A DNA stretch of 64,000 nucleotides, taken from contig CAZMNP010000074.1 of the NCBI GenBank assembly GCA_964567675.1, positions 2,923 to 66,922 of the forward strand, in the 5' to 3' direction. The notes below the pieces were generated by a model. It did not search any database. It was not told the origin of the DNA and saw nothing but the letters and a program-made list of their open reading frames with translations. Each line of letters starts with the position of its first letter. The first letter of the stretch is position 1. This DNA is from an uncultured Actinomycetes bacterium. Its GTDB lineage: Bacteria; Actinomycetota; UBA4738; HRBIN12. Shown one piece after another: positions 11,169 through 46,320 of this stretch. The position numbers were made by a program, and so were the translations under genes.

Positions 11169-11250
11169 CTCCCGAGCGAACCGGCCCCGCCACGGCCGGG
11201 GGGTCGCCCCGGACTCGACGCCTCCCCGCGTGGCCTGCCAACATGGCGTC

Positions 11251-12087
11251 ATGAACGAGCGGACGGTGGCGTTCCTGGGCGGCGGACGGATGGGCGAGGC
11301 CCTCGTGTCCGGATTGATCCGTTCGGGGGGTCGAGCGGCGGACGAGATCGTCGTGACGACCCGGCGCGAGGAACGCGCCCGCGAGCTCCAGGAGCGCTAC
11401 GGGATCTCGGCGACCACCTCGAACCCAGAGGCCGCCGGGCGCGCCCAGACCCTCGTGCTGATGGTCAAGCCGCAGGACATGGAGGGGCTCCTGGAGCAGA
11501 TCTCCGGGAGCGTGACCGCCGAGCATCTCGTGATCAGCTTCGCGGCGGGGATCCGGACCTCCTTCGTGGAGAAGCACGTCCCACCCGGCGTCCCGGTCGT
11601 CCGAGTCATGTCGAATGTGGCCGTCCTGGTCGACGAGGCGATGTCGGTGGTGTCGGCCGGCGCGAATGCCGAGGACAAGCACCTCGCCGTCGCCGAGGAG
11701 CTGCTCGGGTACGTCGGCAGGGTCCTCCGGTTGAAGGAAACGCACCTCGACGCCATCACCGCGACGAGCGGGAGCGGGCCGGCCTACTTCTTCCTCCTCG
11801 CCGAAGCCATGATCGAGGCGTGCATCCTGCTCGGGCTCGCGCGCGACGTCGCGACCGAGCTGATCATCCAGACGATGCTCGGCTCGGCGAAGATGCTGCG
11901 CGATACCGGGAAGCACCCGGTCGAGTTGCGCGAGATGGTCACCTCGCCCGGGGGGACGACCATCGCGGCGATCCGTCACCTGGAGGAGGCGGGCGTTCGG
12001 GCGGCCTTCCTGAACGCCATCGACGCGGCTCGTCACCGGAGCGCCGAGCTCGCGCAGGGTGGCGACGAAGACGAAGGGCTCAAGTAG
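11251..12087 (+). CDS. proC: pyrroline-5-carboxylate reductase
   Basis: The protein has a Rossmann N-terminus (VAFLGGGRMGEALVSGL) and the ProC C-terminal domain (SPGGTTIAAIRHLEEAGVRAA). Confidence 0.85.
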   Translation: MNERTVAFLGGGRMGEALVSGLIRSGGRAADEIVVTTRREERARELQERYGISATTSNPEAAGRAQTLVLMVKPQDMEGLLEQISGSVTAEHLVISFAAGIRTSFVEKHVPPGVPVVRVMSNVAVLVDEAMSVVSAGANAEDKHLAVAEELLGYVGRVLRLKETHLDAITATSGSGPAYFFLLAEAMIEACILLGLARDVATELIIQTMLGSAKMLRDTGKHPVELREMVTSPGGTTIAAIRHLEEAGVRAAFLNAIDAARHRSAELAQGGDEDEGLK

Positions 12088-17425: not shown

Positions 17426-18225
17426 ACGGCTCAAGGAGCCAAGCGATAGCCGGCGCCGAACGGAACGGCTACACGAAGAACGAGATCATGATCGTCGCGA
17501 GCGCGCGCACCCTCGCCGCCGAACGCATCTGCTTCGTCGGGGTCGGCCTTCCGAACATCGTCTGCAACCTCGCGCAGCGAACGGTCGCGCCCGAGCTTCA
17601 GCTCGTGTACGAGGCCGGCGTGTTCGGCGCCCGGCCGAGCCGACTCCCGCTCTCGATCGGCGACCCCACGCTCGTCTCGGGTTCGACGGCGGTGACCTCG
17701 ATGTTCGAGCTGTTCGCCTTCTACCTGCAGGCCGGACTCATCGACGCAGCGTTCCTCGGCGGCGCGCAGATCGACCGGTTCGGGAACCTCAACACCACGG
17801 TGATCGGCGACTACGCCAGCCCGAAGGTCCGGCTCCCCGGCTCGGGCGGCGCGTGCGAGATCGCGATCCACGCGCGGCGGATCCTCGTCATCATGCGCCA
17901 GGCCCGGCGGTCCTTCGTCGACGAGCTCGACTTCCGCACGTCGCCCGGACACTCGGGTGATCCCGTGCACGACCGGGCGCGTGGCTGGTCCGGCAGCGGA
18001 CCGACCAGTGTCGTCACGGATCTGGGGACGTACGGGTTCGACGAGCGGACCGGGGAGATGACGCTGCTGACCTTGCACGCCGGCGTCACGCTGGACGACG
18101 TGCGCACGAACATGGCGTGGGAGCCGAAGGTCACGGACGACCTCGGCGAGACCCCGCCGCCCACCGAGGAAGAGCTGCGCTTGCTCCGGACCGAGCTCGA
18201 TCCCGACGGGGTGCTGACGGCATGA
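17422..18225 (+). CDS. CoA-transferase subunit B
   Basis: The beta-subunit glutamate region is present (RLPGSGGACEIA). The GTG start overlaps the subunit-A stop. An internal ATG near 17486 is an alternative start. Confidence 0.7.
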   Translation: MNGSRSQAIAGAERNGYTKNEIMIVASARTLAAERICFVGVGLPNIVCNLAQRTVAPELQLVYEAGVFGARPSRLPLSIGDPTLVSGSTAVTSMFELFAFYLQAGLIDAAFLGGAQIDRFGNLNTTVIGDYASPKVRLPGSGGACEIAIHARRILVIMRQARRSFVDELDFRTSPGHSGDPVHDRARGWSGSGPTSVVTDLGTYGFDERTGEMTLLTLHAGVTLDDVRTNMAWEPKVTDDLGETPPPTEEELRLLRTELDPDGVLTA

Positions 18226-19535
18226 GTCACGTCTTCTACCGGGTCCTCTCGCGCGAGTTGCCGAGAGCCGTTCGCGCGGACGGCGTGTGGATCGAGGACG
18301 CCGACGGCAAGCGGTACCTCGACGGGTCCGGCGGTGCGATCGTGGTGAGTCTCGGTCACGGAGATCGCGCGCTGGTCGAGGCCATGACCGAACAGGCCTC
18401 GCGCCTGCCATACGTCCACGGGACGGCGTTCACCACCGGCGCGCTCGAGGACTACGCCGAGGACGTGGCGTCCCTGCTCCCGCTCGAGGACGCGCGCATC
18501 TACCCCGTCTCCGGCGGCAGCGAGGCGGTGGAGACGGCGCTCAAGCTCGCGCGCGCGTACCACCTGGCGCGAGGGGAGGGTTCGCGCACCGTGGTGATCG
18601 GCCGCCGGGCGTCGTACCACGGCAACACGCTCGGTGCGCTCGACGTGGGAGGCAAGGACAAGCTGAAACGCCCGTACGCGCCGTGGCTCGGTCGGTTCGG
18701 TCATGTGGAGGCGGCCTACGAGTATCGATGCGCGAACCCCGGCCACCCGGCCGGTTGCGGCCGCTGGCTCGCCGAGCAGCTCGAGCGCGCGATCGTCGAA
18801 GCGGGGCCGGCGACCGTCGCGGCGTTCATCGCGGAGCCCGTCGTCGGCGCGACGCTCGCGGCGGCAGTTCCGGCGGACGACTACTGGTCCTCGGTGGTCG
18901 AGGTGTGCCGCAAGCATGGCGTCCTCGTGATCGCCGACGAGGTGATGACCGGGTTCGGCCGCACGGGACGGTGGTTCGGGCTCGACCATTGGGGTGTTCG
19001 CCCGGACATCCTCACCGCCGGGAAGGGATCGACGAGCGGCTATTGGCCCTTCGGCTTCGCCGCGTGTTCCGGCGAGGTCTTCGAGACCGTTCGGCCGAAC
19101 GGATTCGTGCACGGTTTCACCTGGTCGCACAACGGCGTCGGCGCTGCGGTCGCGCACGCCACGCTCCGCAGACTCCGTGAGTCCAACCTCGTCCAGGCGA
19201 GCGCGTTGCAGGGCGAGCTCCTCCTGAAGGACCTCACCGGCGCGCTCGCCGACCATCCGACGGTCGGAGACGTTCGGGGGATCGGCTCGATGATCGGGAT
19301 CGAGCTCGTCGCCGACCGGGACACCAGGGCTCCGTTCGCGCGAGCCGAGCAACGGACCGAGCGCGTCGTGGCGGCCGCCCGAGAGCGAGGTCTCTTGCTC
19401 TACTCGAGCACCGGGCACGTCGACGGGGTCGACGGGGACCTGTTGATGCTCGGACCGCCGTTCACGATCACCGACGAGGAACGCGGCCTCCTCGCCGAAC
19501 GGACCGTGGCCGCCATCGCGAGCCTGGACGGATAG
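18222..19535 (+). CDS. class-III (PLP) aminotransferase
   Basis: The family motif is present (DEVMTGFGRTGRWFGLDHWGVRPDILTAGKG). The ATG overlaps the upstream stop (ATGA). Confidence 0.8.
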   Translation: MSHVFYRVLSRELPRAVRADGVWIEDADGKRYLDGSGGAIVVSLGHGDRALVEAMTEQASRLPYVHGTAFTTGALEDYAEDVASLLPLEDARIYPVSGGSEAVETALKLARAYHLARGEGSRTVVIGRRASYHGNTLGALDVGGKDKLKRPYAPWLGRFGHVEAAYEYRCANPGHPAGCGRWLAEQLERAIVEAGPATVAAFIAEPVVGATLAAAVPADDYWSSVVEVCRKHGVLVIADEVMTGFGRTGRWFGLDHWGVRPDILTAGKGSTSGYWPFGFAACSGEVFETVRPNGFVHGFTWSHNGVGAAVAHATLRRLRESNLVQASALQGELLLKDLTGALADHPTVGDVRGIGSMIGIELVADRDTRAPFARAEQRTERVVAAARERGLLLYSSTGHVDGVDGDLLMLGPPFTITDEERGLLAERTVAAIASLDG

Positions 19536-19538
19536 CGC

Positions 19539-20687
19539 GTGGGCGGACGCGCCGGCCTCGTGCTCTGTCCGGAGGCGAAGATCTACGACCACGGCCCCGA
19601 ACACCCGCTCCGGCCTCAGCGGGTCCAGTACACGTGGGACCTGATCTCGGCGTGCGGGTTGCTCGAACGGCCCGGCGTCTCGACCCTGCACTGTCGTTCC
19701 GCCGGCGACGAGGAGCTCGGGTTGGTCCACTCGGATGCGTACATCGACGCGACGCGCCGTGCCGGCCACGGCGAGGACGGCGACTGGAGCCGGTTCGGCT
19801 ACGGTCCCGGAGACAACCCGATCTTCCCGCAGATGCACGAGGCGGGGGCCCTCGTCGCCGGCGCATCGATCGTGGCCGCCGAGTCGGTGCACACCGGTGT
19901 GGTCGACCATGCCTTCAACGCCGCCGGTGGCCTGCACCACGCGATGCCCTCCCGAGCCTCGGGTTTCTGCGTGTACGACGATCCGGCGATCGCGATCGCG
20001 TGGCTCCTGGGAGAAGGCGTTCACCCGATCGCGTACGTGGACGTCGACGTGCATCACGGCGATGGTCCGCAGGCGATCTTCTACGAGGACCCGCGCGTGC
20101 TCACGATCTCGCTGCACGAGTCCGGCGAGTACCTGTTCCCCGGGACCGGCTTCGTGACCGAGCGAGGTGCCGCGGCGGCCGAGGGGACCAAGGTAAACGT
20201 CCCGCTCGCACCCGGGACCGGCGACCTGGCATGGCTCGCGGCGTTCGATTCGATCGTCCCGCCCATCCTTCGCGCGTTCCGTCCCGCGGTCCTTGTCTCC
20301 CAGCTCGGGTGCGACACGCACGCCGGCGATCCGCTGGCGCACTTCCGCCTCACGACCCGCGCCTATCGTGAGACCGCCGCCCGGCTGCATGCACTTGCCC
20401 ATGAGGCGGCGGGCGGCCGATGGATCGCGACGGGCGGAGGCGGGTACCGTTGGGCCGACGTGGTGCCTCGAGCGTGGACCCTGTACTTCGCCGAGATGTG
20501 CGAGGCCGAGCTCCCCGACGCGCTGCCGGAGGCCTGGATCGAGACAGTCGAGTTCGAGGTCCGCCGTGAGGTGCCGGCGACGTTCAGCGAGCCGCCGTTG
20601 CCGGAGGACCGCCAATCGGCCGAGAACGAGGCGATCATCGAACAGGTGCGCCGAACGTGCTTCCCGCACTTCGGGCTCGACGCATGA
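19539..20687 (+). CDS. histone-deacetylase-family amidohydrolase (AcuC / acetylpolyamine amidohydrolase type)
   Basis: The protein has the HDAC zinc ligands and motifs (GFCVYDDPAIA, YVDVDVHHGDG). It starts with GTG. Confidence 0.8.
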   Translation: MGGRAGLVLCPEAKIYDHGPEHPLRPQRVQYTWDLISACGLLERPGVSTLHCRSAGDEELGLVHSDAYIDATRRAGHGEDGDWSRFGYGPGDNPIFPQMHEAGALVAGASIVAAESVHTGVVDHAFNAAGGLHHAMPSRASGFCVYDDPAIAIAWLLGEGVHPIAYVDVDVHHGDGPQAIFYEDPRVLTISLHESGEYLFPGTGFVTERGAAAAEGTKVNVPLAPGTGDLAWLAAFDSIVPPILRAFRPAVLVSQLGCDTHAGDPLAHFRLTTRAYRETAARLHALAHEAAGGRWIATGGGGYRWADVVPRAWTLYFAEMCEAELPDALPEAWIETVEFEVRREVPATFSEPPLPEDRQSAENEAIIEQVRRTCFPHFGLDA

Positions 20688-22123
20688 GCGTTCCGGCGGC
20701 GGCCGGCCGCCGTGGTGTGAAGCTCGTGTGCACGCTCGGGCCGGCCACGTCGACGATCGAGTCCGTTCGCGCCCTCGCCGAGGCGGCGACGAACGTGTTC
20801 CGCGTGAACCTGTCGCACGGAGACGCCGACGCTCGCCGGCACCTGGTGGAGCTCGTACGCGCGGTCTCCGAGGAGCGAGGCGAGGATCACGCGGTGATGA
20901 TGGACCTGCCCGGACCCAAGATCCGGCTCGGCGAGCTCCGGGGAGGGGAGGCCCGGCTCGAGGTGGGAGCGCGGTTCGAGTTCCGCTCCGACGGCGCCGA
21001 GGGCGATGGAACCGGCGCGAGCACCACGTACGCGGGCCTCGCCGCCGACGTTCGGCCAGGCGACCGTATCCTGCTCTCGGACGGCGCGGTGGAGTTGACG
21101 GTCGTGTCGACCGAGGGCTCGGTCGTGGTGTGCGAGGTCGTGCGGGCCGGCCGGATCCGTTCGGGCGCCGGAGTGAACGTCCCGGCCGAGCGGCTCAGCC
21201 TTCCGGGCATCACCGATCGCGATCGCGCGGGACTTCACGAGGCGATGGACGTCGGCGCCGACCTTCTCGCACAGTCGTTCGTCCGGGCGGCGTCGGACGT
21301 CATCGGCCTGCGCGCCCTGATGGCCGAGCGCGCGATCCCGATCGTCGCGAAGATCGAGACGCGGCCGGCGGTGGACGACATCGCGGCCATCCTCGGCCAC
21401 GCCGACGCGGTCATGGTGGCGCGAGGCGATCTCGGCGTCGAGCTTCCGATGGAGGAGATCCCGATCCTCCAGAAAGAGCTGCTGAAGGCCGCTCGGATAG
21501 CCGGGCGCCCGGCCATCGTGGCGACCCAGATGCTGGAGTCCATGATCGGCTCGCCGCGTCCGACCCGCGCGGAGGCGACCGACGTCGCCACCGCGGTCCT
21601 GGACGGCGCCGACGCGATCATGCTCTCGGGGGAGACGGCCATCGGGGAGTTCCCCGTCGAGGCGTCGCGAGCTGCTTCCCGCATCGCCGAGGTCGCGGAA
21701 GCTCGAGCGGGCGGGTATGCCGCGGTCCGCGACCCGTGCACCCACACCGACGAGGCGGCGGCGATCGCGCACGCGGCGGCCCAGATCGCGAACACCGACC
21801 CGTCCGTCGTCGCGATCGCGTGCTACACGCGGACCGGGCGGACCGCGTCGTTGCTGTCGGCCGAGCGGCCGGGCGTGCCGATCTACGCGTTCGTCCCGGA
21901 GACCTCGCCCCGCAGAGCCCTGTCCCTGCGCTGGGGCGTCCGGGCGCTGCCGGCTCGCGTGCCCGAGGACACCGACGCGATGATCGCCTCGATGGCGGAG
22001 GGCCTGCTCGCGATCGGGTTCGCGGCGCCGGGCCAGTCCGTGGTCATGGCCGCGTCATCGCCGGCGGGGAAGTCGCACACGAACATGCTGAAGGTCCACC
22101 ACATCGGCGACGCCGTTCGCTGA
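20684..22123 (+). CDS. pyk: pyruvate kinase
   Basis: The pyruvate kinase motifs are present (KLVCTLGPAT, MVARGDLGVE). I chose the ATG at 20684, which overlaps the upstream stop (ATGA). Confidence 0.85.
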   Translation: MSVPAAAGRRGVKLVCTLGPATSTIESVRALAEAATNVFRVNLSHGDADARRHLVELVRAVSEERGEDHAVMMDLPGPKIRLGELRGGEARLEVGARFEFRSDGAEGDGTGASTTYAGLAADVRPGDRILLSDGAVELTVVSTEGSVVVCEVVRAGRIRSGAGVNVPAERLSLPGITDRDRAGLHEAMDVGADLLAQSFVRAASDVIGLRALMAERAIPIVAKIETRPAVDDIAAILGHADAVMVARGDLGVELPMEEIPILQKELLKAARIAGRPAIVATQMLESMIGSPRPTRAEATDVATAVLDGADAIMLSGETAIGEFPVEASRAASRIAEVAEARAGGYAAVRDPCTHTDEAAAIAHAAAQIANTDPSVVAIACYTRTGRTASLLSAERPGVPIYAFVPETSPRRALSLRWGVRALPARVPEDTDAMIASMAEGLLAIGFAAPGQSVVMAASSPAGKSHTNMLKVHHIGDAVR

Positions 22124-22953: not shown

Positions 22954-23781
22954 ATGGACGTCATCGAATCGCACGCAGCGAAGCTTCCGCGGATCGACGA
23001 TCGCTGGAGGCCGGGGCCCGTCGACCGCGACGAGCTGGTGCTCGGCCTGCTCGAAGGGCGTGTCGCGTTCGAGGAGACCAGCCACGCGTTCGACAACGTC
23101 CTGCGCAACATCGGGCTCTTGCTGAACGGCGATCCCGACAAGCAGTTCGGGATGACTGGCTTGCAGACGTTCACCGAGGACGAGGTGCTCGCGATGGTCG
23201 GCCGTGCGGCCGGCTTTCGGCCGGATCCTCAGATCCGCACCGGCCCGGTCCCCATCGATCCAGAACTGGTCCTGGACGCGTGCACGGCGGCCGGGGACCG
23301 TCTGGCTCGAGCCGTGCGCAACCGGGAGACCGTGATCCTCGCGACCGGTCATCCGGTCGGGCTCGCCCACCTCTACATGGCGGTCGGCCGGGAGCTGCGG
23401 GAGCGTGGGCTAGCGCTCCTGAAGCCGGCCGACGGGCTTCGGTGGCGCGAAGAAATGCTCCCGCATCCCTGGCAGATCCGGTATCTGGACGGCGTCGCGT
23501 TGCTCACCGACGAAGCCAGCGCTCGCCACACCCACAGCGGCGACGCGATGGCCAGGATGCTCGACGAGGAACGCCCCCAGCTCGTCTTCGCCGACCACGG
23601 GTTCGCCGGGGCGGCCATCGAGCGCGGGATCGATACGGTCTCGATCGCCGACGTGAACGACCCGGCGCTCCTTGTCGCAAAGGAGCAGGGCAGGACGGAG
23701 AACGTCATCGTCATGGACGACAACGTCAGTCCGGAGGACTACTGGCCCTGTTTCCAGGCTATCGCGGCTCGCCTGCCCTGA
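22954..23781 (+). CDS. conserved hypothetical protein
   Basis: The 275-aa ORF has an ATG start and globular composition (..TGHPVGLAHLY.., HTHSGDAMA, FADHGFAGAA). I could not confidently assign a family. Confidence 0.5.
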   Translation: MDVIESHAAKLPRIDDRWRPGPVDRDELVLGLLEGRVAFEETSHAFDNVLRNIGLLLNGDPDKQFGMTGLQTFTEDEVLAMVGRAAGFRPDPQIRTGPVPIDPELVLDACTAAGDRLARAVRNRETVILATGHPVGLAHLYMAVGRELRERGLALLKPADGLRWREEMLPHPWQIRYLDGVALLTDEASARHTHSGDAMARMLDEERPQLVFADHGFAGAAIERGIDTVSIADVNDPALLVAKEQGRTENVIVMDDNVSPEDYWPCFQAIAARLP

Positions 23782-23996
23782 GCGGCCTCGAGGACTCACC
23801 TGCTCCGACGCCGCGCGGCGGGCTCGCCCGCCCGTGAGTAGGATGAGCGGACCGTGAACCACACACCCGACCCAGAGGCACGCTTCGAACGCGTGAACGG
23901 ACGCACCATGCGCCCATCCATCGACCCCCAGACCGGTCTCCGCTCTCGCCGACGGAGGAAGCCGACGGCGTAGGCGGCACGCACGCGCGCGAACGG

Positions 23997-24019
23997 GCCT
24001 CCGGGAGAAACCCGGAGGC
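23997..24019 (+). promoter_or_regulatory. perfect 9-bp stem hairpin (GCCUCCGGG-AGAAA-CCCGGAGGC) that sequesters the GGAGG RBS of the downstream gene
   Basis: The inverted repeat can be read directly. The GGAGG at 24014-24018 sits inside the 3' arm, 4 nt before the GTG start at 24023. Confidence 0.3.
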
Positions 24020-24022
24020 GGA

Positions 24023-24913
24023 GTGAACCAGTACGAGGCGCTCGTCGACGACGCGGTGGGCAAGAAGCACACCGTCGTCCTGCTCGGCGCGCTCGATACG
24101 GGCAAGACCACCTTCGCGACCTCGTTGCTCGCCGCGGCGGTCGAGGCCGGACGGACGTCCGCCTACCTCGACGCCGACGTTGGGCAGAAACACGTCGGCC
24201 CACCCGCGACGGTGAGCTTGAAGCTCGTCCGTTCCGCCGAGGACCTGCAGGCCGACCGCATGGCCGTGGCCGACTCGATGTCGTTCGTCGGAGCGATCGC
24301 GCCGGAGGATCACCTCCTCGAGGTCGTCGCCGGCGTGGCGACGCTGCACCGAGCGGCGAAGGAAGCGGGGGCGGACTTCGTGGTCATGGACACATCCGGG
24401 CTCGTATCCGGGATCCACGGACAGATCTTGAAGTACCACAAGATCGAGCTGCTGCAACCCGACCTCGTCGTCGGCTTCCAACGCGGCGAGGAGATCCTGC
24501 CCCTGCTCGGGGTCATCCAGCGGTTCTTCCGCACGGAGGTCGTGCCGCTCGGCGTACCCCCGGGCGTCGTGCCCTCGACCGTGGATCAGAGAGCCGAGAA
24601 CCGTGAGGAGGCGATGCGCCGGTACTTCTCGGGCGAGCTCCACCGGTTCCGGGTCAAGCCCACGGTGTTCATGCCCGCTCTTCCCCCGTGGTTCGATTCC
24701 GCCAAACTGCACCGGATCCTCGTCGGCCTCTCGGACGGGGCAGGCTCGTACCCCGGTCTCGGCTACCTCGAGCACTCCCCGGAGGAGGGGGTGCTGCGCC
24801 TGATCACGCCGGTGGCAGCCGGCCCGAAGGCGCTTAGACTGGGTTCGGTTCGGCTCGAGGAGAGCTTCCACGCCAGGCGCGTGGACCTCCGGGATCTGTT
24901 CGGGTCGGAGTAA
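24023..24913 (+). CDS. Clp1/Grc3-like P-loop polynucleotide-kinase-family protein
   Basis: The protein has Walker A (GALDTGKTTF), a downstream YLDADVGQ (the DxDxGQ motif) and VMDTSG (Walker B/lid). This is the Clp1 P-loop domain pattern. It starts with GTG. Confidence 0.55.
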   Translation: MNQYEALVDDAVGKKHTVVLLGALDTGKTTFATSLLAAAVEAGRTSAYLDADVGQKHVGPPATVSLKLVRSAEDLQADRMAVADSMSFVGAIAPEDHLLEVVAGVATLHRAAKEAGADFVVMDTSGLVSGIHGQILKYHKIELLQPDLVVGFQRGEEILPLLGVIQRFFRTEVVPLGVPPGVVPSTVDQRAENREEAMRRYFSGELHRFRVKPTVFMPALPPWFDSAKLHRILVGLSDGAGSYPGLGYLEHSPEEGVLRLITPVAAGPKALRLGSVRLEESFHARRVDLRDLFGSE

Positions 24914-24938
24914 GCCGCAGAGAAGAGAGAGGAAACGC

Positions 24939-25040
24939 GTGCCGTCGCTGATCAAGAAGCGCCGCAAGAAGATGCGGAAGAAGAAGCACAAGAAGCTGCT
25001 CAAGAAGACCCGCTGGCAGCGACGCCAGCAAGGCCGCTAG
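24939..25040 (+). CDS. rpsV: 30S ribosomal protein bS22 (33 aa, Actinobacteria-specific)
   Basis: The protein reads VPSLIKKRRKKMRKKKHKKLLKKTRWQRRQQGR and closely parallels mycobacterial bS22 (..[26 protein letters not shown]..). An AGGAAA RBS precedes the GTG. The gene is absent from the ORF track because it is shorter than 60 aa. Confidence 0.75.
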   Translation: MPSLIKKRRKKMRKKKHKKLLKKTRWQRRQQGR

Positions 25041-25056
25041 GACCGGCCGCGCGGCG

Positions 25057-25806
25057 ATGAGCGCGCCCGGTCGGCGCCGGTATCGGCCGCCCGCCGCGGT
25101 TCTCCTGCTCGCCTTCCTCGTCCTGACCGGCTGCTCCGCCGAGCCCGTCGCCGACCTCTCCGATTCCCGGAAGGTCTCGTTCCCCGCGGCCGACGGCGTC
25201 CGACTCGACGGGCGCCTGTTCGGTGACGGCTCCTCGGCCGTCGTCCTGTCGCATATGCGTCCGTCGGATCAGACGTCCTGGTTCCGCTTCGCGGGGCGGC
25301 TCGCGGACGCCGGCTACCTCGTCCTGACGTACGACTTCCGCGGCTATTGCCCAGGCGGCGACGGGGGGTGCTCGCAGGGGAGTCGCGACGTGGCGGCGAT
25401 GTGGCAGGACGTGGTGGGCGCGGTCGAGTTCGTTCGCTCCCGCGGGGCGACATCGGTCTCGCTCGTCGGGGCGAGCATGGGCGGCACCGCATCGCTCGTC
25501 GCCGCGTCTCGAGAGGGTGACGACCTCCGAGCGGTGATCGCGCTGTCGGCGCCGGCCTCGATCGAGGGTCTGGTGGTCGACGGCGCGCTGCTGTCCCAGG
25601 TGTCCGTCGGCAAGCTCTTCATCGCGGGCGTCGGCGACGCGGCCGCCGCCATCGACGCCGAGTCCCTGTACGCACAGGCGCCGCCGCCGAAGCGGGTCGA
25701 GATCGTGCCAGCCGACGATCACGGCACCGACCTGCTCACCGGCAGCCAAGCCGAGGTCGTTCGCCGCCTGATCGAGACGTATCTGCAGCAGAGCGGGGGA
25801 CCCTGA
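25057..25806 (+). CDS. alpha/beta-hydrolase-fold lipoprotein
   Basis: A signal peptide with a lipobox is present (LLAFLVLTGCSAEP). The nucleophile elbow is GASMGG. Confidence 0.7.
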   Translation: MSAPGRRRYRPPAAVLLLAFLVLTGCSAEPVADLSDSRKVSFPAADGVRLDGRLFGDGSSAVVLSHMRPSDQTSWFRFAGRLADAGYLVLTYDFRGYCPGGDGGCSQGSRDVAAMWQDVVGAVEFVRSRGATSVSLVGASMGGTASLVAASREGDDLRAVIALSAPASIEGLVVDGALLSQVSVGKLFIAGVGDAAAAIDAESLYAQAPPPKRVEIVPADDHGTDLLTGSQAEVVRRLIETYLQQSGGP

Positions 25807-26058: not shown

Positions 26059-27804
26059 CTACCGCACGACCTGAACGGTGAAGCCGGCCCGGCCGCGAAC
26101 GATCACGTCCTGGACCTGCGAGACGGTCTGCCCGAACCCCTTCACGATGAGGTCGTTCGCGTGATCCCCTCCGTTCAGCGCGGCGATCAGGTCGTCGAGC
26201 GAGCCGATGCCCCGGCCATAGTTGAAACGTCCTCGCCCTCCGCTGATCCGGATCTCCTCGGAGCCTCGAGCGCCGCGCGGCACCCGGAACGTCAGCTGGG
26301 AAACGACGTTCGTGTCGCGGCCGATCGGGTTCAAGGTGACCTCGATCGTCACCCGGTCGCCCGGCCCGGCCCGCAGGACCGACCGCTGCTTCAGGGACGG
26401 CTGGAGCGGGCTCGAGACGCGGATGCGCTCGATCTGCGACGTCAGGTCGTCGTTGGTGATCTCGCCGGTCATGTCCACCCCGGTGAACTCGATGTCCTCG
26501 AACCCGTTGAACGCCAGGGTGTAGAGCATGCTCGCGACCGGGTAGGCCTCGTTCGCGCCGCTGAACGGGCTGAACGACATCAGCCGGTTCGAGACGGTGA
26601 ACGGCGATCCGTCCTCACGCGTACCCGAGATCGTCCACTCGAGCTCGAGCGTTCCCGGCCCGTCCTGCTGTGCGACGAAGCTCAGGTTGGCCCACGCGTG
26701 ATAGTAGGTTGCGTCGGCGACGAAGGAATCCTCGTCCCACGCCACCTCGGTCTCACCCTCGCGCGACAGGCCGGTGTCGGGGCTCGACACGTCGCTCGTG
26801 ATCGGAATCAGGGTCGGAAGCGTTCCGAACACCCCGGCGACGCCGGAGAAACGGTCCTGGGTCATCGTTCCACGTGCGTCACCCAGGATGCCGATCTTCG
26901 TCCCCCAGAAGTTGCCGTTGTCGATCGCGATCACCACGACCTCGTTCATGCCGAGCGACACGGGACCGATCCCCCAGAACATCGGGTGACCGAAGCCGAT
27001 CACCGTGTCTCCGCACACCGCCGTCGCCGTCCCGAATCCGTAGACGGACGCGTCGCCGTAGGCCAGCGCGACGCCGAGGCCCTCACCGGGCGCGAGCGGG
27101 GTCGGATCGAGCGTGACGGAGCTCGGCGCTCGGACGGAGCCGGAACGGAACGCCTGGACGCGGATCCCGCGATCGGCGAACGAGCGCTCGACCTTGGAAA
27201 GCGGCATCCCGGCGAGGCCGGAGACGCCGATCGGGATCGGCAACGACTCCAGCGTGGCACCCGGCGCGAGGTTGCTGCCCGCAGCCGCGGCCGCGCGACG
27301 GACCTGCGGCGACAGCGCGACGCTCGAGGGCATCGATCCCGAGGATCCACCCGGCAGGGAGAACATCTGCACCATGTCCTCAGCGGCGGTCAACCCGAAG
27401 ATCTCCCGGTCCTCGGCGATCGCCCAGGCGACCGCCCCGGCGAGCTGTCCGTTGATGTAGACCGGCGACCCCGACATCCCGGCGACCGCCCCACCGGTCG
27501 TCGCGACGAAGTCCGCCGGCCCGGTGATCTTCGCGGCGACGATGTCGACGCCGAGGAAGATCGCGTTCGGCATGACGCCGAGGATCTCGACGTTGAAGGG
27601 CTCGAGGGTCGTGCCCTCGAGAACGGTGTAGCCCACCCCGGTCATCCCACGGGTCATCTGGCTCGTGGGGAAGGTCTGAGGAGGACTGGTGCACGGGACC
27701 GCGGCGGGCGCGGGGCCCGCGGCGAGGAGCGTCGCGACGAGCGCGATTGCCACCACGCCGGTCACGGGCATGGATCGACTGAGTCGGACACGGCGAACGG
27801 ACAT
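26059..27804 (-). CDS. secreted peptidase S55 (SpoIVB-type serine peptidase) domain protein
   Basis: The active-site region GGAVAGMSGSPVYINGQLAGAV matches the SpoIVB GMSGSPI catalytic serine motif. An N-terminal signal peptide is present (MSVRRVRLSRSMPVTGVVAIALVATLLAAGPAPA), so I chose the ATG at 27804. Confidence 0.7.
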   Translation of the reverse strand: MSVRRVRLSRSMPVTGVVAIALVATLLAAGPAPAAVPCTSPPQTFPTSQMTRGMTGVGYTVLEGTTLEPFNVEILGVMPNAIFLGVDIVAAKITGPADFVATTGGAVAGMSGSPVYINGQLAGAVAWAIAEDREIFGLTAAEDMVQMFSLPGGSSGSMPSSVALSPQVRRAAAAAGSNLAPGATLESLPIPIGVSGLAGMPLSKVERSFADRGIRVQAFRSGSVRAPSSVTLDPTPLAPGEGLGVALAYGDASVYGFGTATAVCGDTVIGFGHPMFWGIGPVSLGMNEVVVIAIDNGNFWGTKIGILGDARGTMTQDRFSGVAGVFGTLPTLIPITSDVSSPDTGLSREGETEVAWDEDSFVADATYYHAWANLSFVAQQDGPGTLELEWTISGTREDGSPFTVSNRLMSFSPFSGANEAYPVASMLYTLAFNGFEDIEFTGVDMTGEITNDDLTSQIERIRVSSPLQPSLKQRSVLRAGPGDRVTIEVTLNPIGRDTNVVSQLTFRVPRGARGSEEIRISGGRGRFNYGRGIGSLDDLIAALNGGDHANDLIVKGFGQTVSQVQDVIVRGRAGFTVQVVR

Positions 27805-27900
27805 GACGTCACCCCTCTCAGCTGAGCCGGATGCTATGCCTCTGACGCAACACATGCCGGGTCCGTTCCTCGCTCGTCGTCCATTCGAAGGGACCTGCGA

Positions 27901-28707
27901 TCAAACGGCGAGGGGGAGCCGGTCCGTGCAGAACGCGCGGTTCTCGGCCAGGACCCTGCGGAGGGCTTCGGGGTCGCCGAGGTGACGCCGGAGGTCGATC
28001 TCGAGCGAGACCGAGCCCGCGAACCCGCTCCCGGCAAGCGCGTCGAGGAACGATCCCAGCGGCAGGACGCCCTCGGTCACCGGAAGGTGGGAGTCCCATC
28101 CCTTGCCGGCGTTGTTCGACAGGTGCACGTGGGCCAGGCGCGTCCGGAGCCGGTCGAGGATCTCCAGAAGGTCGAGGCCGGCGACCGCTGCGTGACTGGT
28201 GTCGAGGACCACGTGGTCGAACCCCTCGAGGTCCTCGAGCGTGCGGACGGCGTGGAACGCTCCCACCTTCCGGCCTCGAACGCGGACGGGGAACATGTTC
28301 TCCACCGCAACGTGGATGTCGGTGCGTTCCTCGAGCATCGGCAGCCGCTCCTCGGTCCAGCGGCGATACGCCGTCTGCCACCGGTACGGTGGGTGGACCA
28401 CGACGAGGGGAGCGCCGACGCTCTCGGCGAGCTCGAGCGCGTGATCGATCTTCCCGATCGGGTCGGTGCCCCAAACGGTCCGCGTCATCAACAGGAACGG
28501 CGCATGGATCGCGACGATCGCGAGCGAGTGCTCCTCGGCGAGCTCGAGCAACCGGCGAGCGTCGCGGGTGTCGGGATCCTTGGTGACCATCACCTCGACG
28601 CTGCCGAAGCCGGCCTCCGCCAGGAGCGGGAACACTTCGTGGAGCGGTGTCGGGATGAGGCTCACCGTCGAGCAGGCGATCCGAGGTCCGTGGGCGGGTT
28701 CGGTCAC
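27901..28707 (-). CDS. sugar-phosphate isomerase/epimerase (xylose-isomerase-like TIM barrel)
   Basis: The AP-endonuclease-2/TIM-barrel pattern is present (..HAPF.. ..VENMFP.. HVHLSNN). It starts with GTG. Confidence 0.7.
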   Translation of the reverse strand: MTEPAHGPRIACSTVSLIPTPLHEVFPLLAEAGFGSVEVMVTKDPDTRDARRLLELAEEHSLAIVAIHAPFLLMTRTVWGTDPIGKIDHALELAESVGAPLVVVHPPYRWQTAYRRWTEERLPMLEERTDIHVAVENMFPVRVRGRKVGAFHAVRTLEDLEGFDHVVLDTSHAAVAGLDLLEILDRLRTRLAHVHLSNNAGKGWDSHLPVTEGVLPLGSFLDALAGSGFAGSVSLEIDLRRHLGDPEALRRVLAENRAFCTDRLPLAV

Positions 28708-44496: not shown

Positions 44497-46320
44497 TCAG
44501 GCGAGCGCCGCGAACGGCGATGCCGCGTCGACGGCGACCGCGGCGAAAAGCAGCCCGAGGTAGACGATCGAGAAGCGGAACAGGCGCATCGAGTCCGCCT
44601 TGGACGCACCCAGCCAGAGCCGAAGCGCTCGCCAGACGAACCAGCCACCGAGCACGAGCGCGGCGACCGCGTAGACCGGCCCCATGTCGCCGAAGGGCAC
44701 CAGCAGGAGCGACGTCCCGAACAGCACGAGGGAATACAGCAGGATCTGCTTGCGTGTCTCCTCCGGCCCTCGCACCACGGGAAGCATCGGGATGCCGGCC
44801 GCCGCGTAGTCGTCGCGGTAGCGCATCGCGAGCGCCCAGAAATGCGGCGGCGTCCAGACGAACACGATCGCGAACAGGATCCACGCGGGTACCCCGACCG
44901 TCCCGGTCACGGCGGCCCACCCGACGAGCGCGGGAGCGGCACCCGCGGCGCCCCCGATGACGATGTTCTGGACGCTCGTGCGCTTTAGCCACATCGTGTA
45001 GACGAAGACGTAGAAGGCGATCGCCGCGAGGGCGAGGCTCGCCGCCAGCACGTTGACGACGATCGAGAGGAACAGGAACGCGGCGGCCCCCAGGACGTAC
45101 CCGAAGGCGAGCGCGTTCTCCGGGGCGATCCGCTGTGCCGGGAGCGGACGCCGGCGTGTCCGCCGCATCACCTCGTCCACGTCGCGATCGAGGTAGCAGT
45201 TGATCGCGTTCGCCGAGCCCGCGGCGACGGCGCCGCCGCCAACGGTCGCCAGGATCAACAGGATGGAGGGCAGGCCGCGCTCGGCGAGCATCATCGCCGG
45301 CACGGTCGTGATCAACAGCAGGACGATGATCCGCGGCTTCGTGAGTTGGAAGTACGCGGCCGTCGTCTCGCGGAGCGAGGTGCGCTTGCCGTTCCTCCGG
45401 GCGTCCACGTCCGAGTGCGCGTGTCCGCCCCGGCGGGTTTCGTTGCGTGCGGCGACCCAGAGTGCGACCAGCGTCGCCCAGATCGCGGCCGACAGGGCCA
45501 CGTGGGCGGTCACCGCCGCGGGCTGCAGGCGGGACCAGACGTTTGCGGCACCGACGAGGATCTGCGCGACGATCAGTGCCAGCGCGACCAGGGACAGGAT
45601 CGAGAGCGGCCGGTTCCGCGGCCGGGTCCAAGCCCGGATGAACACGAAGAGCACCAGCAGGGCTGCCGCTGCGGCCAGGACACGATGGGCGAACATCCAG
45701 GTGGCGGCCCCACCGAGCGCCGGCACGAGGCGTCCGTCCATGAGCGGCCAGTCGCGGAAGGCCAGGCCCGAGCCGGTCGCCCGGACGTACGTGCCGATGA
45801 CCAGCGCGCCGAACGTCACGAGCGCGGTCCAACCGGCCAGCGCGACGAAACCGTCACCGGGCGAGGGCCGTTCGCGTCGGCGGCCGCGACCGAACGCATA
45901 GAGCGCCTCCGCGGCGTTCGCCACGACGACGGCGACGAGCGCCATCGCGAACGCGAAGTGGACGGTCACCCAGGCCGGGTCGAGATCGGTCTGCACCACG
46001 ATGCCTCCGAGCACCGCCTGCATGAGCACGAGGGGGACGGCGGCGACGGACAACCGGAAGATCGTCCGCTGCTCCTTGTGCCGGCGCCACGCCTCGACGG
46101 CCATCCACGCGATCAGGACGACGAGGACGAACGCGACGAACCGGTGCGAATACTCGATCCAGGACTTAGCCGTCGGGTAGGGGAGCCAGCGGTCCGGCCC
46201 GCACTTGGGCCAGCTGGTGCAGCCGAGGCCCGACTCGGTCGCCCGGACGAGCCCGCCCACGCCGAACAGGAGGACGGTCGTCGAGGCGGTCGCGATCGCG
46301 AGCTTCTGGAAGCGCGTCAT
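44497..46320 (-). CDS. ctaAB: fused heme A synthase (CtaA, N-terminal) and protoheme IX farnesyltransferase (CtaB/CyoE, C-terminal)
   Basis: The N-terminal 320 aa carry the paired Cys in loop 1 (CTSWPKC) and the His-containing helices of CtaA. The C-terminal 290 aa have UbiA-family motifs ([26 protein letters not shown]). I chose the ATG at 46320. Confidence 0.8.

Follow-up and report, generated by a model that had tools for sequence, protein, structure and literature searches.

A Clp1-family polynucleotide kinase homologue in an uncultured actinobacterium, its PF15698 neighbour, and a hairpin covering its ribosome-binding site

In eukaryotes and archaea, RNA kinases of the Clp1 type have a central part in splicing tRNA, forming mRNA 3' ends, and processing rRNA, and a related enzyme, Grc3/Nol9, acts after the nuclease Las1: it phosphorylates the 5'-hydroxyl (5'-OH) end of the cut, which allows pre-rRNA to be trimmed by a 5'-3' exonuclease. 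Such proteins are uncommon in bacteria. Saito et al. (2019) counted 14 species with Clp1 genes among 1,543 bacterial species, and 0 among the 244 Actinobacteria with complete genomes (PMC6777427). The 27-kDa Clp1 of Thermus scotoductus (Ts-Clp1), the sole bacterial enzyme of this type that has been assayed, is a proven ATP-dependent kinase of 5'-OH single-stranded and double-stranded RNA, and phosphorylates DNA more weakly, at high enzyme concentration (PMC6777427); no biological role has been established for a bacterial Clp1. Here we describe a well-conserved version of Clp1 from the Actinomycetota, the phylum in which the 2019 survey had recorded none. It is encoded on contig CAZMNP010000074.1 of an uncultured Actinomycetes bacterium, and all coordinates given below, unless they carry the handle of another locus, are positions in the whole 64-kb stretch of this contig that was analysed (the window). 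Three features of the locus are reproducible among genomes: a gene of the Pfam family PF15698 ('Phosphatase') is linked to the kinase gene, a BldC-type regulator gene flanks it on one side and that of ribosomal protein bS22 on the other, and its ribosome-binding site is masked. All three give a handle on the role of bacterial Clp1, be it end healing with a partner, a link to the ribosome, or limited expression, and the first also points to a possible function for PF15698. The Clp1 family is already known; the locus provides good experimental leads and no evidence for a new kind of system.

The kinase gene (Table 1) starts at a GTG codon and ends with TAA. The start is backed by over 100 homologues whose length is exactly 296 amino acids and by a conserved N-terminus, MN(E/Q)YEALV. 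Residues 22-204 of the product matched the Pfam family PF16575 (CLP1_P) over profile positions 1-188 of 188, with an E-value of 4e-36 and a score of 125 bits against a cut-off of 26.6. Leaving RecA artefacts aside, the best sequence matches in PDB were human Clp1, C. elegans Clp1, and NOL9; human CLP1 (8hmy_E) was matched by phmmer at E 2.9e-10, and a profile of 30 homologues brought this to 4e-25. An AlphaFold2 model built on the homologue alignment (pLDDT 95, pTM 0.91) was compared with PDB by Foldseek, and human CLP1 was again the top match (E 9.7e-20, TMq 0.75), the others including C. elegans Clp1, yeast Clp1, Grc3, and NOL9. Matches to Clp1, Grc3, and NOL9 ranged from E 1e-20 to 4e-10 and from TMq 0.56 to 0.75 over about 300 columns, those to Clp1 and Grc3 reaching TMq 0.69-0.75 over 299-389 alignment columns, and the next family, the SRP-type GTPases, appeared at E 1.7e-5 and TMq 0.28 (FtsY). 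By profile, sequence, and predicted fold, the window protein is a member of the Clp1/Grc3/Nol9 family, in agreement with an earlier sequence-only reading of this DNA, which had called it a Clp1/Grc3-like homologue of a kind uncommon in bacteria. Metagenome pipelines had already labelled such proteins 'polynucleotide 5'-hydroxyl-kinase GRC3/NOL9' or 'Clp1/GlmU family protein'.

The protein consists of a kinase domain and a Clp1-type C-terminal domain. Eukaryotic Clp1, a tRNA-splicing and mRNA 3'-end factor (8hmy_E, 4ohv, 2npi), is its best match in both sequence and structure; both domains are covered, and the catalytic motifs align. The identity, however, is 20-23%, the eukaryotic N-terminal domain is absent, a clasp motif discussed below reads TSGL instead of TCGW, and the eukaryotic partners TSEN and Pcf11 do not exist in bacteria. 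Ts-Clp1 and the archaeal Pyrococcus Clp1 are likewise short prokaryotic proteins without the N-terminal domain, but the window protein differs from both in being actinobacterial, in having the Clp1-type C-terminal domain, and in carrying Leu in place of the clasp Trp. Whereas the activity of Ts-Clp1 was demonstrated with the enzyme, the window protein is known from its sequence; by analogy, Ts-Clp1 is a precedent for the 5'-OH kinase activity that it may possess. Grc3 and Nol9 share the kinase fold (6of2_B, 8puw_B, 7y17, 9dun), but they are much larger and have extra N- and C-terminal domains.

Pillon et al. (2018) defined four motifs for this family, including a Walker B motif, [D/E]hhQ, with a catalytic Asp and a conserved Gln, a clasp motif, [T/S/L]xGW, and a lid module with transition-state arginines (PMC5900568). 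Three of the four (P-loop, Walker B, lid) are intact in the window kinase, and the clasp deviates. G22, G27, and K28 of the P-loop are invariant in 30 diverse homologues, and the motif aligns with GPTDVGKST of human Clp1 (GPTDVGKST/TT in Clp1). D50, D52, G54, and Q55 of Walker B are each at least 90% conserved in the 30 homologues, and the motif corresponds in the alignment to LDVGQ in Clp1 from human and C. elegans; D52 is predicted to act as catalytic base and Q55 to contact the phosphate. R190 and R194 of the lid, invariant in the same homologues, align with RRECR of human and RSKMR of C. elegans Clp1. The P-loop, D52/Q55, and R190/R194 are conserved in homologues down to 29% identity (n = 30). 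The sequence-only reading had recognised the Walker A motif and the DxDxGQ motif correctly, but had taken a TSG sequence for the lid; this sequence lies at the clasp position, where DTSGL stands opposite NTCGW in the human and C. elegans Clp1 sequences. The real lid is formed by R190 and R194. At the clasp, T124 and G126 are kept, and the family Trp is replaced by L127, homologues having L, F, A, Y, M, or T at this position. The loss of the Trp is a deviation of the bacterial subfamily, which lowers confidence in substrate specificity and leaves confidence in the fold unaffected.

Relatives of the window kinase are numerous, with about 2,000 among the representatives of 50%-identity clusters, and one peptide pattern found them in 337 species-level genomes. 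The best 80 of these 337 are all metagenome-assembled genomes (MAGs), nearly all labelled Actinomycetota or Actinomycetes, the exceptions being a few labelled 'bacterium' only and one with another name. Given some 2,000 relatives and only MAGs among those 80 genomes, the window protein represents an actinobacterial branch of a known family, sizeable yet uncultured. Gene neighbourhoods were compared in two sets, one of 80 related genomes (61-98% kinase identity), for which counts refer to loci with enough sequence, and the other a sample of 80 metagenome loci, for which denominators vary by feature. For more distant relatives, the gene order was read from their contigs.

No gene accompanies the kinase gene more constantly than the PF15698 gene directly upstream of it, which the sequence-only reading had missed while correctly noting bS22 on the other side. 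It lies upstream of the kinase gene in 65 of 66 related-genome loci and no more than 3 kb upstream in all 36 metagenome loci in which this could be scored. When two distant phosphatases (33% and 31% identical to that of the window) were used as queries, a kinase gene was again found 2-2.6 kb downstream. Moreover, in a sister clade at about 51% identity, the phosphatase stop codon overlaps the kinase start codon by 4 nucleotides (nt) (ATGA/GTGA) in 21 of 29 loci, so that the two genes are translationally coupled there. The loci of this clade (L113, L120, and L132-L170, all from metagenomes) have neither a helix-turn-helix (HTH) gene nor bS22 beside the kinase gene; a SAM hydroxide adenosyltransferase-like gene (SAM_HAT) follows instead. 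The AlphaFold model of the PF15698 protein has a pLDDT of 94.8. A Foldseek search with it gave no significant solved relative, the best match being uS2 through an alpha/beta core (E 1.4e-3, TM 0.33-0.43), and a PDB sequence search gave nothing. The invariant residues of the family, H133, H192, H194, D214, H215, D233, N235, D236, D255, and D256, form a His/Asp cluster that suggests a metal-dependent hydrolase. We found no mention of PF15698 or Rv0499 in the literature.

The sequence-only reading had also described the ribosome-binding site of the kinase gene as lying inside a perfect 9-bp stem, and this was seen as described. An arm complementary to the Shine-Dalgarno (SD) sequence (GCCTCCGGG, 23997-24005), the loop AGAAA (24006-24010), and the SD arm (CCCGGAGGC, 24011-24019) form a hairpin that has GGAGG within its 3' arm and is followed 3 nt later by the GTG codon; it is present in the predicted minimum-energy fold, and the folding energy of the local segment is -20.9 kcal/mol. 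In a 64-kb window of such high GC content, a pattern of 6+6 nt of anti-SD and SD with a free loop is expected 1.2 times by chance, and the exact 9+9 pattern 0.03 times. A single hairpin of this kind is therefore not beyond chance, and its significance lies in its being kept in relatives. Scored as a helix of at least 5 bp covering GGAG of the SD, it was detected in 71 of the 76 distinct leaders; the loops span 3-25 nt, and some contain an inner helix. The 3' arm, CGGAGGC, is nearly invariant and is always the SD itself, with the start codon 3-9 nt later in the same 71 leaders. As a background, 303 other SD-bearing starts from these loci were scored; 58% of them had no helix, and 5.6% scored 7 or more. 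In a MAFFT alignment of the leaders, 86.4% of the cells pair, against 39-55% in slid registers. Variants of the anti-SD arm at the SD core were, in the detected helices, all C-to-U changes that still pair (G-U); detection required pairing, and disruptive variants would sit among the five leaders without a helix. Double changes flank the SD core, CCGGG/CCCGG becoming, for example, CCGAG/CTCGG or CCGT/ACGG.

Table 1. Features of the kinase locus (positions in the 64-kb window)
Feature	Position	Strand	Basis
PF15698 'Phosphatase' family gene, 275 amino acids	22954..23781	+	Pfam E 3e-58
Small ORF, 39 amino acids, BldC/Rv0500A-type HTH_17 remnant	23854..23973	+	Synteny, profile-profile comparison
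Hairpin sequestering the kinase SD	23997..24019	+	Sequence, minimum-energy fold
GGAGG SD core of the kinase gene	24014..24018	+	Read from the sequence; 4 nt before GTG
Clp1-family polynucleotide 5'-hydroxyl kinase homologue, 296 amino acids	24023..24913	+	PF16575, phmmer, AlphaFold/Foldseek
P-loop (Walker A) GALDTGKT, residues 22-29	24086..24109	+	Matches GxxxxGK[T/S]
Walker B DADVGQ, residues 50-55	24170..24187	+	Homologue alignment
Clasp position DTSGL, residues 123-127	24389..24403	+	Alignment to Clp1
Lid arginines R190-A-E-N-R194	24590..24604	+	Homologue alignment
30S ribosomal protein bS22 gene, 33 amino acids	24939..25040	+	NF047430, PF08213
Alpha/beta-hydrolase with lipoprotein signal peptide	25057..25806	+	Pfam Hydrolase_4, Abhydrolase_1

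Since no other neighbour of the kinase gene is as constant as the PF15698 gene, our working model is a two-protein end-processing pair, consisting of a 5'-kinase and a phosphoesterase. The Clp1-family kinase would convert 5'-OH ends of RNA, and perhaps of DNA, into 5'-phosphate ends in an ATP-dependent reaction, and these ends could then be ligated or would be open to 5'-monophosphate-dependent nucleases. In the clade of the window, the hairpin, by pairing the SD with its upstream anti-SD copy, would hold down independent translation of the kinase, while bS22, which has its own ribosome-binding site, would be freely translatable from the same transcript. We consider it rather probable that this explanation holds as a whole, that is, that the locus encodes a polynucleotide 5'-OH kinase whose translation is kept low and which may work with a PF15698 partner; the fallback is an ordinary member of the Clp1 family in an interesting neighbourhood. 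If PF15698 acts on nucleic-acid ends, the pair of activities, 5'-kinase and 3'-phosphatase, would be that of the PNKP-type enzymes (T4 Pnkp, bacterial Pnkp/Hen1, and mammalian PNKP; PMC6777427). Those enzymes, however, are single polypeptides that join a T4-Pnk-type kinase to a HAD or calcineurin-type phosphatase, whereas the window has two genes, a Clp1-type kinase, a phosphatase family without a solved relative, and no ligase or Hen1 nearby.

Low independent initiation on the kinase gene may be common to all of the gene arrangements that we encountered, and would be achieved here by the stem of about -21 kcal/mol. In the 51% clade, the kinase gene needs no SD since it overlaps the phosphatase gene. 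In three loci of the clades at 43-50% identity (L086, L095, and L096), a terminator (GACCGTCC..GGACGGT followed by a T run) lies after the HTH_17 gene, about 40-60 nt upstream of the kinase start; no recognisable SD follows it, which suggests a very short or leaderless kinase transcript. Leaders that sequester the SD are known from repressor stems and from the RNA thermometers ROSE and fourU, in which the ribosome-binding site is likewise fully paired with an upstream anti-SD before the start codon. In contrast to the thermometers, the stem in the window is perfect, GC-rich, and far too stable to melt at physiological temperatures, and we rejected this class. A search of the whole window against Rfam, whose families cover RNA thermometers and ribosomal-protein leaders, gave no match at the gathering thresholds, and region 23600-25200 gave chance-level matches only (E above 1). 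A REP-like repeat element was also rejected, as the hairpin is unique in the window. Direct translational coupling of the kinase gene to the small open reading frame (ORF) upstream was judged unlikely, as this ORF stops 24 nt short of the stem, too far for a terminating ribosome to reach it.

Several observations weigh against the explanation that we favour. The PF15698 protein is called a phosphatase by its Pfam name alone, and, having no solved relative, it may act on small molecules. Its gene overlaps an upstream HDAC-family gene in L082 (3045-3048) and L091 (3907-3910), and a downstream NicX/M29-like gene in L086 (2681-2684), L095 (6780-6783), and L096 (6777-6780); the kinase gene is therefore not its sole tight neighbour, and, since the tight partners vary, the phosphatase may belong to a small-molecule pathway. 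No gene for an RNA ligase, RtcB, or Hen1 was found within about 14 kb upstream and 16 kb downstream of the kinase gene (10236-41114), and no tRNA or rRNA gene was found near it in the region of the window that was scanned. Among short Clp1 homologues from outside the Actinobacteria, one has NUDIX and UDG neighbours and two have no recurrent partner. A preference for RNA or DNA cannot be read from the sequence, because the clasp Trp that stacks on the terminal base in Clp1 and Grc3 is Leu in the window protein. As for the hairpin, covariation is weak, with a score of 0.171 against 0.140 in shuffled alignments (10 of 500 as high), and RNAalifold recovers five core pairs only, with zero double changes there; weak covariation is to be expected, since one arm of the hairpin is the SD itself. 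Finally, the clades at 43-50% identity have no hairpin, and a canonical U-tailed terminator after the HTH gene takes its place.

The variable tight partners of the phosphatase gene, its HDAC and NicX overlaps included, would also be accounted for if the synteny were historical only. The kinase would then be a general housekeeping or stress kinase of RNA or DNA 5' ends without a dedicated partner, and the PF15698 protein a small-molecule phosphatase. A long gene order is indeed kept across clades (proC, GNAT, HDAC, SDR, phosphatase, NicX, HTH_17, clp1, bS22, SAM_HAT, epimerase, acyltransferase), and some metagenome matches to PF15698 carry the JGI label 'histidinol phosphate phosphatase hisN-like'. 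The 4-nt overlap of the phosphatase and kinase genes in most loci of the 51% clade, however, is hard to explain without co-expression, and the neighbourhood of the two genes was kept while the genes between them were lost several times. We regard a purely historical synteny as unlikely, though it has to be reckoned with.

A further alternative concerns the hairpin, and depends on what lies upstream of it. The spacer between the phosphatase and kinase genes is 241 nt long and contains the small ORF of 39 codons, which retains an N-terminal PEARFERVN sequence only. Relatives at 61-71% kinase identity have an intact HTH_17 gene of 65 amino acids at this position, and closer relatives have ORFs of 39-44 amino acids with only the N-terminal motif PxxEARFxRV. 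A profile-profile comparison matched the short ORFs with the intact HTH proteins (probability 89.6%, E 1.9e-6, 33 columns), and pairwise BLASTP between them gave no match; the ORF of the window is a decayed gene from which the helix-turn-helix has been lost. An intact HTH gene was found in 13 of 72 metagenome loci. The claim that the 39-amino-acid ORF is under selection as a protein was dropped, since in DNA this rich in GC a 40-codon ORF is estimated to be open by chance about half the time. Between its stop codon and the hairpin (23975-23996) lies a conserved GC-rich element with the palindrome CACGCGTG, which has the version CACGCGCGCGAAC in the window and the form GCACGCGTGCGA(A/C)C in many relatives (loci including L008, L012, L017, L019, L023, L032, and L039-L041); this element could be a binding site for a regulator or a part of the leader RNA.

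The hairpin could then be mainly a terminator or attenuator, or an RNA-stabilising end, that belongs to the HTH gene upstream (or to what is left of it) and overlaps the SD incidentally. It begins about 20-25 nt after the stop codon of the upstream ORF in many loci, and in the 43-50% clades a canonical terminator (GACCGTCC...GGACGGTTTTTTT) occupies the equivalent position between HTH_17 and clp1. Against this, no U-tract follows the stem, the terminator scan did not report the hairpin, the 3' arm is in every case the SD with a start codon close behind, and a terminator at this site would also cut off bS22 unless another promoter exists. We think a terminator function fairly improbable and prefer to see the hairpin as a device that would limit translation of the kinase.

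The sequence-only reading had placed the end of the kinase gene 25 nt before the bS22 gene and suggested a check of whether the pair is conserved; the distance holds, and the pair is syntenic in relatives. The bS22 ORF begins with GTG exactly 25 nt after the kinase stop codon, encodes the 33-amino-acid sequence MPSLIKKRRKKMRKKKHKKLLKKTRWQRRQQGR, and has its own SD, GAGGA; it is the sole bS22 copy in the window. Its product matched the NCBIfam equivalog model NF047430 (ribo_bS22) with 50.4 bits against a cut-off of 34, and PF08213 with E 1.1e-8. In all 75 related-genome loci, bS22 follows the kinase gene after a gap of 8-48 nt (median 16), and a scan for terminators found no terminator-like site between the two genes in the window. 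We infer that they are cotranscribed. The pair is also syntenic in the clades at 43-50% identity (L086/L087, L091/L092, L095, and L096). Among metagenome loci, bS22 is downstream of the kinase gene in 34 of 66 and missing in the other 32, including the whole 51% clade.

Such adjacency raises the question of whether the kinase acts on rRNA or ribosome-bound RNA in the manner of Grc3/Nol9, with bS22 co-expressed for that purpose. The parallel is a conceptual one, in that the action of the kinase Grc3/Nol9 permits rRNA to be trimmed 5'-3' by an exonuclease and the window gene adjoins a ribosomal protein gene; the closest structural relatives of the window kinase include Grc3 and NOL9, and bS22 is located close to the decoding centre and to helix 44 of 16S rRNA (PMC10081302). 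The connection of the window gene to rRNA, however, is one of adjacency alone, inside a larger and old gene block, and this adjacency is lost in the metagenome loci just mentioned as well as in L082-84, L088, and L089/90. Moreover, an unrelated exported hydrolase is encoded 16 nt after bS22, no Las1-like HEPN nuclease was seen near the kinase gene, and bS22 is dispensable in M. smegmatis (PMC10081302). The possible link to rRNA/tRNA processing or ribosome biogenesis that the sequence-only reading had drawn from the gene order was not further supported, and we consider a ribosome-linked role distinctly improbable.

The gene block extends well beyond the kinase gene. In this old actinobacterial block the order is proC ... 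HDAC ... phosphatase ... HTH_17 - clp1 - bS22 - SAM_HAT - epimerase - acyltransferase, with proC at 11230-12087 and the HDAC-family gene at 19539-20687 in the window. In the clades at 43-50% identity, we found phosphatase - (NicX, Zip, FUR or methyltransferase) - HTH_17 - clp1 - bS22 - (WhiB) - SAM_HAT - epimerase - acyltransferase, and another clade has proC - HDAC - phosphatase - clp1, without bS22. A known counterpart for the centre of the block is the arrangement of BldC/Rv0500A-type genes with bS22. As in that arrangement, an HTH_17 gene (here a remnant) lies upstream, and the 33-amino-acid bS22 matches the NCBIfam model; unlike it, a Clp1-type kinase gene separates the two in this lineage, and of the HTH gene no more than 39 codons are left. 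In Actinobacteria without Clp1 such as M. tuberculosis, the HTH gene and bS22 lie side by side, Rv0500A being directly followed by Rv0500B. The kinase gene would then sit inside an ancestral HTH-bS22 pair, and bS22 would be tied to the HTH gene and the old block rather than to the kinase. Rv0500A is a repressor (PMC6375644), and the bS22 genes are given as MSMEG_0945 and 'Rv0550B', as written in PMC10081302.

A bolder reading would join the two partners to the ribosome. The PF15698 protein and the Clp1-type kinase would then form an undescribed two-protein RNA end-processing module of deep-branching Actinomycetota that acts on ribosomal or ribosome-bound RNA. Such a module would play in bacteria the part of the Grc3/Nol9 step, which opens the way to 5'-3' trimming (here by RNase J), or would serve in the repair of toxin-cut rRNA, and the slot before bS22 together with the SD-masking leader would reflect joint control with ribosome production. 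We regard this as a long shot.

That the window protein is instead some other SIMIBI-class P-loop NTPase (MobB-, CobW-, MinD-, or SRP-GTPase-like) and not a polynucleotide kinase is extremely improbable, since the weak Pfam matches to CbiA, AAA_24/25, and nSTAND3, all under the cut-offs, the weak Foldseek matches to FtsY and SRP54, and the former annotation of related bacterial proteins as GTPases (PMC6777427) stand against a CLP1_P match over the full profile, structural matches to Clp1/Grc3/NOL9 that cover both domains and are at least 5, mostly 8-15, orders of magnitude better in E-value, and conservation of the Clp1-specific DxGQ motif and the lid arginines. MobB and CobW, the families that the sequence-only reading had named as alternatives, were absent among the profile matches. 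CbiA/MinD, AAA, nSTAND, and RecA families were set aside as sub-threshold or Walker-A-only matches, and the RecA matches in PDB were an artefact of concatenated RecA chains that covered 39 residues.

Fusions that might reveal a partner of the kinase were limited to one protein with a CAP domain, and none with PF15698 was found. This protein (P0136, 560 amino acids, from the search of representatives) carries a kinase domain of the Clp1 type (47% identity over residues 14-214) and, fused to it at the C-terminus, a CAP/cysteine-rich secretory protein domain, an odd architecture for an RNA kinase. PADLOC defence models gave 0 matches at E-values up to 0.01 for the kinase, the phosphatase, and the hydrolase. 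In L085 (1412-3401), a distant, short Clp1 homologue (34% identical) is part of an overlapping three-gene operon, NUDIX - CLP1_P - UDG-family, which hints at a 5'-end or nucleic-acid repair context unlike the actinobacterial one. A candidate for a distant phosphatase beside a non-actinobacterial Clp1 homologue (L093) was rejected after a negative profile comparison.

The alpha/beta-hydrolase encoded after bS22 has the N-terminus MSAPGRRRYRPPAAVLLLAFLVLTGCSA with an LTGC lipobox, as read from the translation, and its gene is conserved downstream of bS22 in most related loci. With an exported lipoprotein hydrolase following bS22, the cluster is functionally mixed, and an exported hydrolase apparently shares a transcription unit with a ribosomal protein. 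Farther downstream, both on the minus strand, are a SpoIVB-type S55 peptidase homologue (26059-27855), which one would not expect in an actinobacterial lineage that does not sporulate, and a gene for an AP_endonuc_2/xylose-isomerase-like TIM barrel (27901-28707); relatives (L001) have kept both at this place downstream of the cluster. On the upstream side, the HDAC-family gene and a pyruvate kinase ORF (20657-22123), both on the plus strand, overlap by 31 nt as listed, and an antisense ORF of 952 codons (17811-20669) is almost certainly a high-GC artefact. The background scan for SD-covering helices also turned up a candidate start at 45380 on the plus strand (about 45340-45380), in which GGAG is contained in a 9-bp long-loop helix (GCTTCGTGAG...CTCGCGGAGC).

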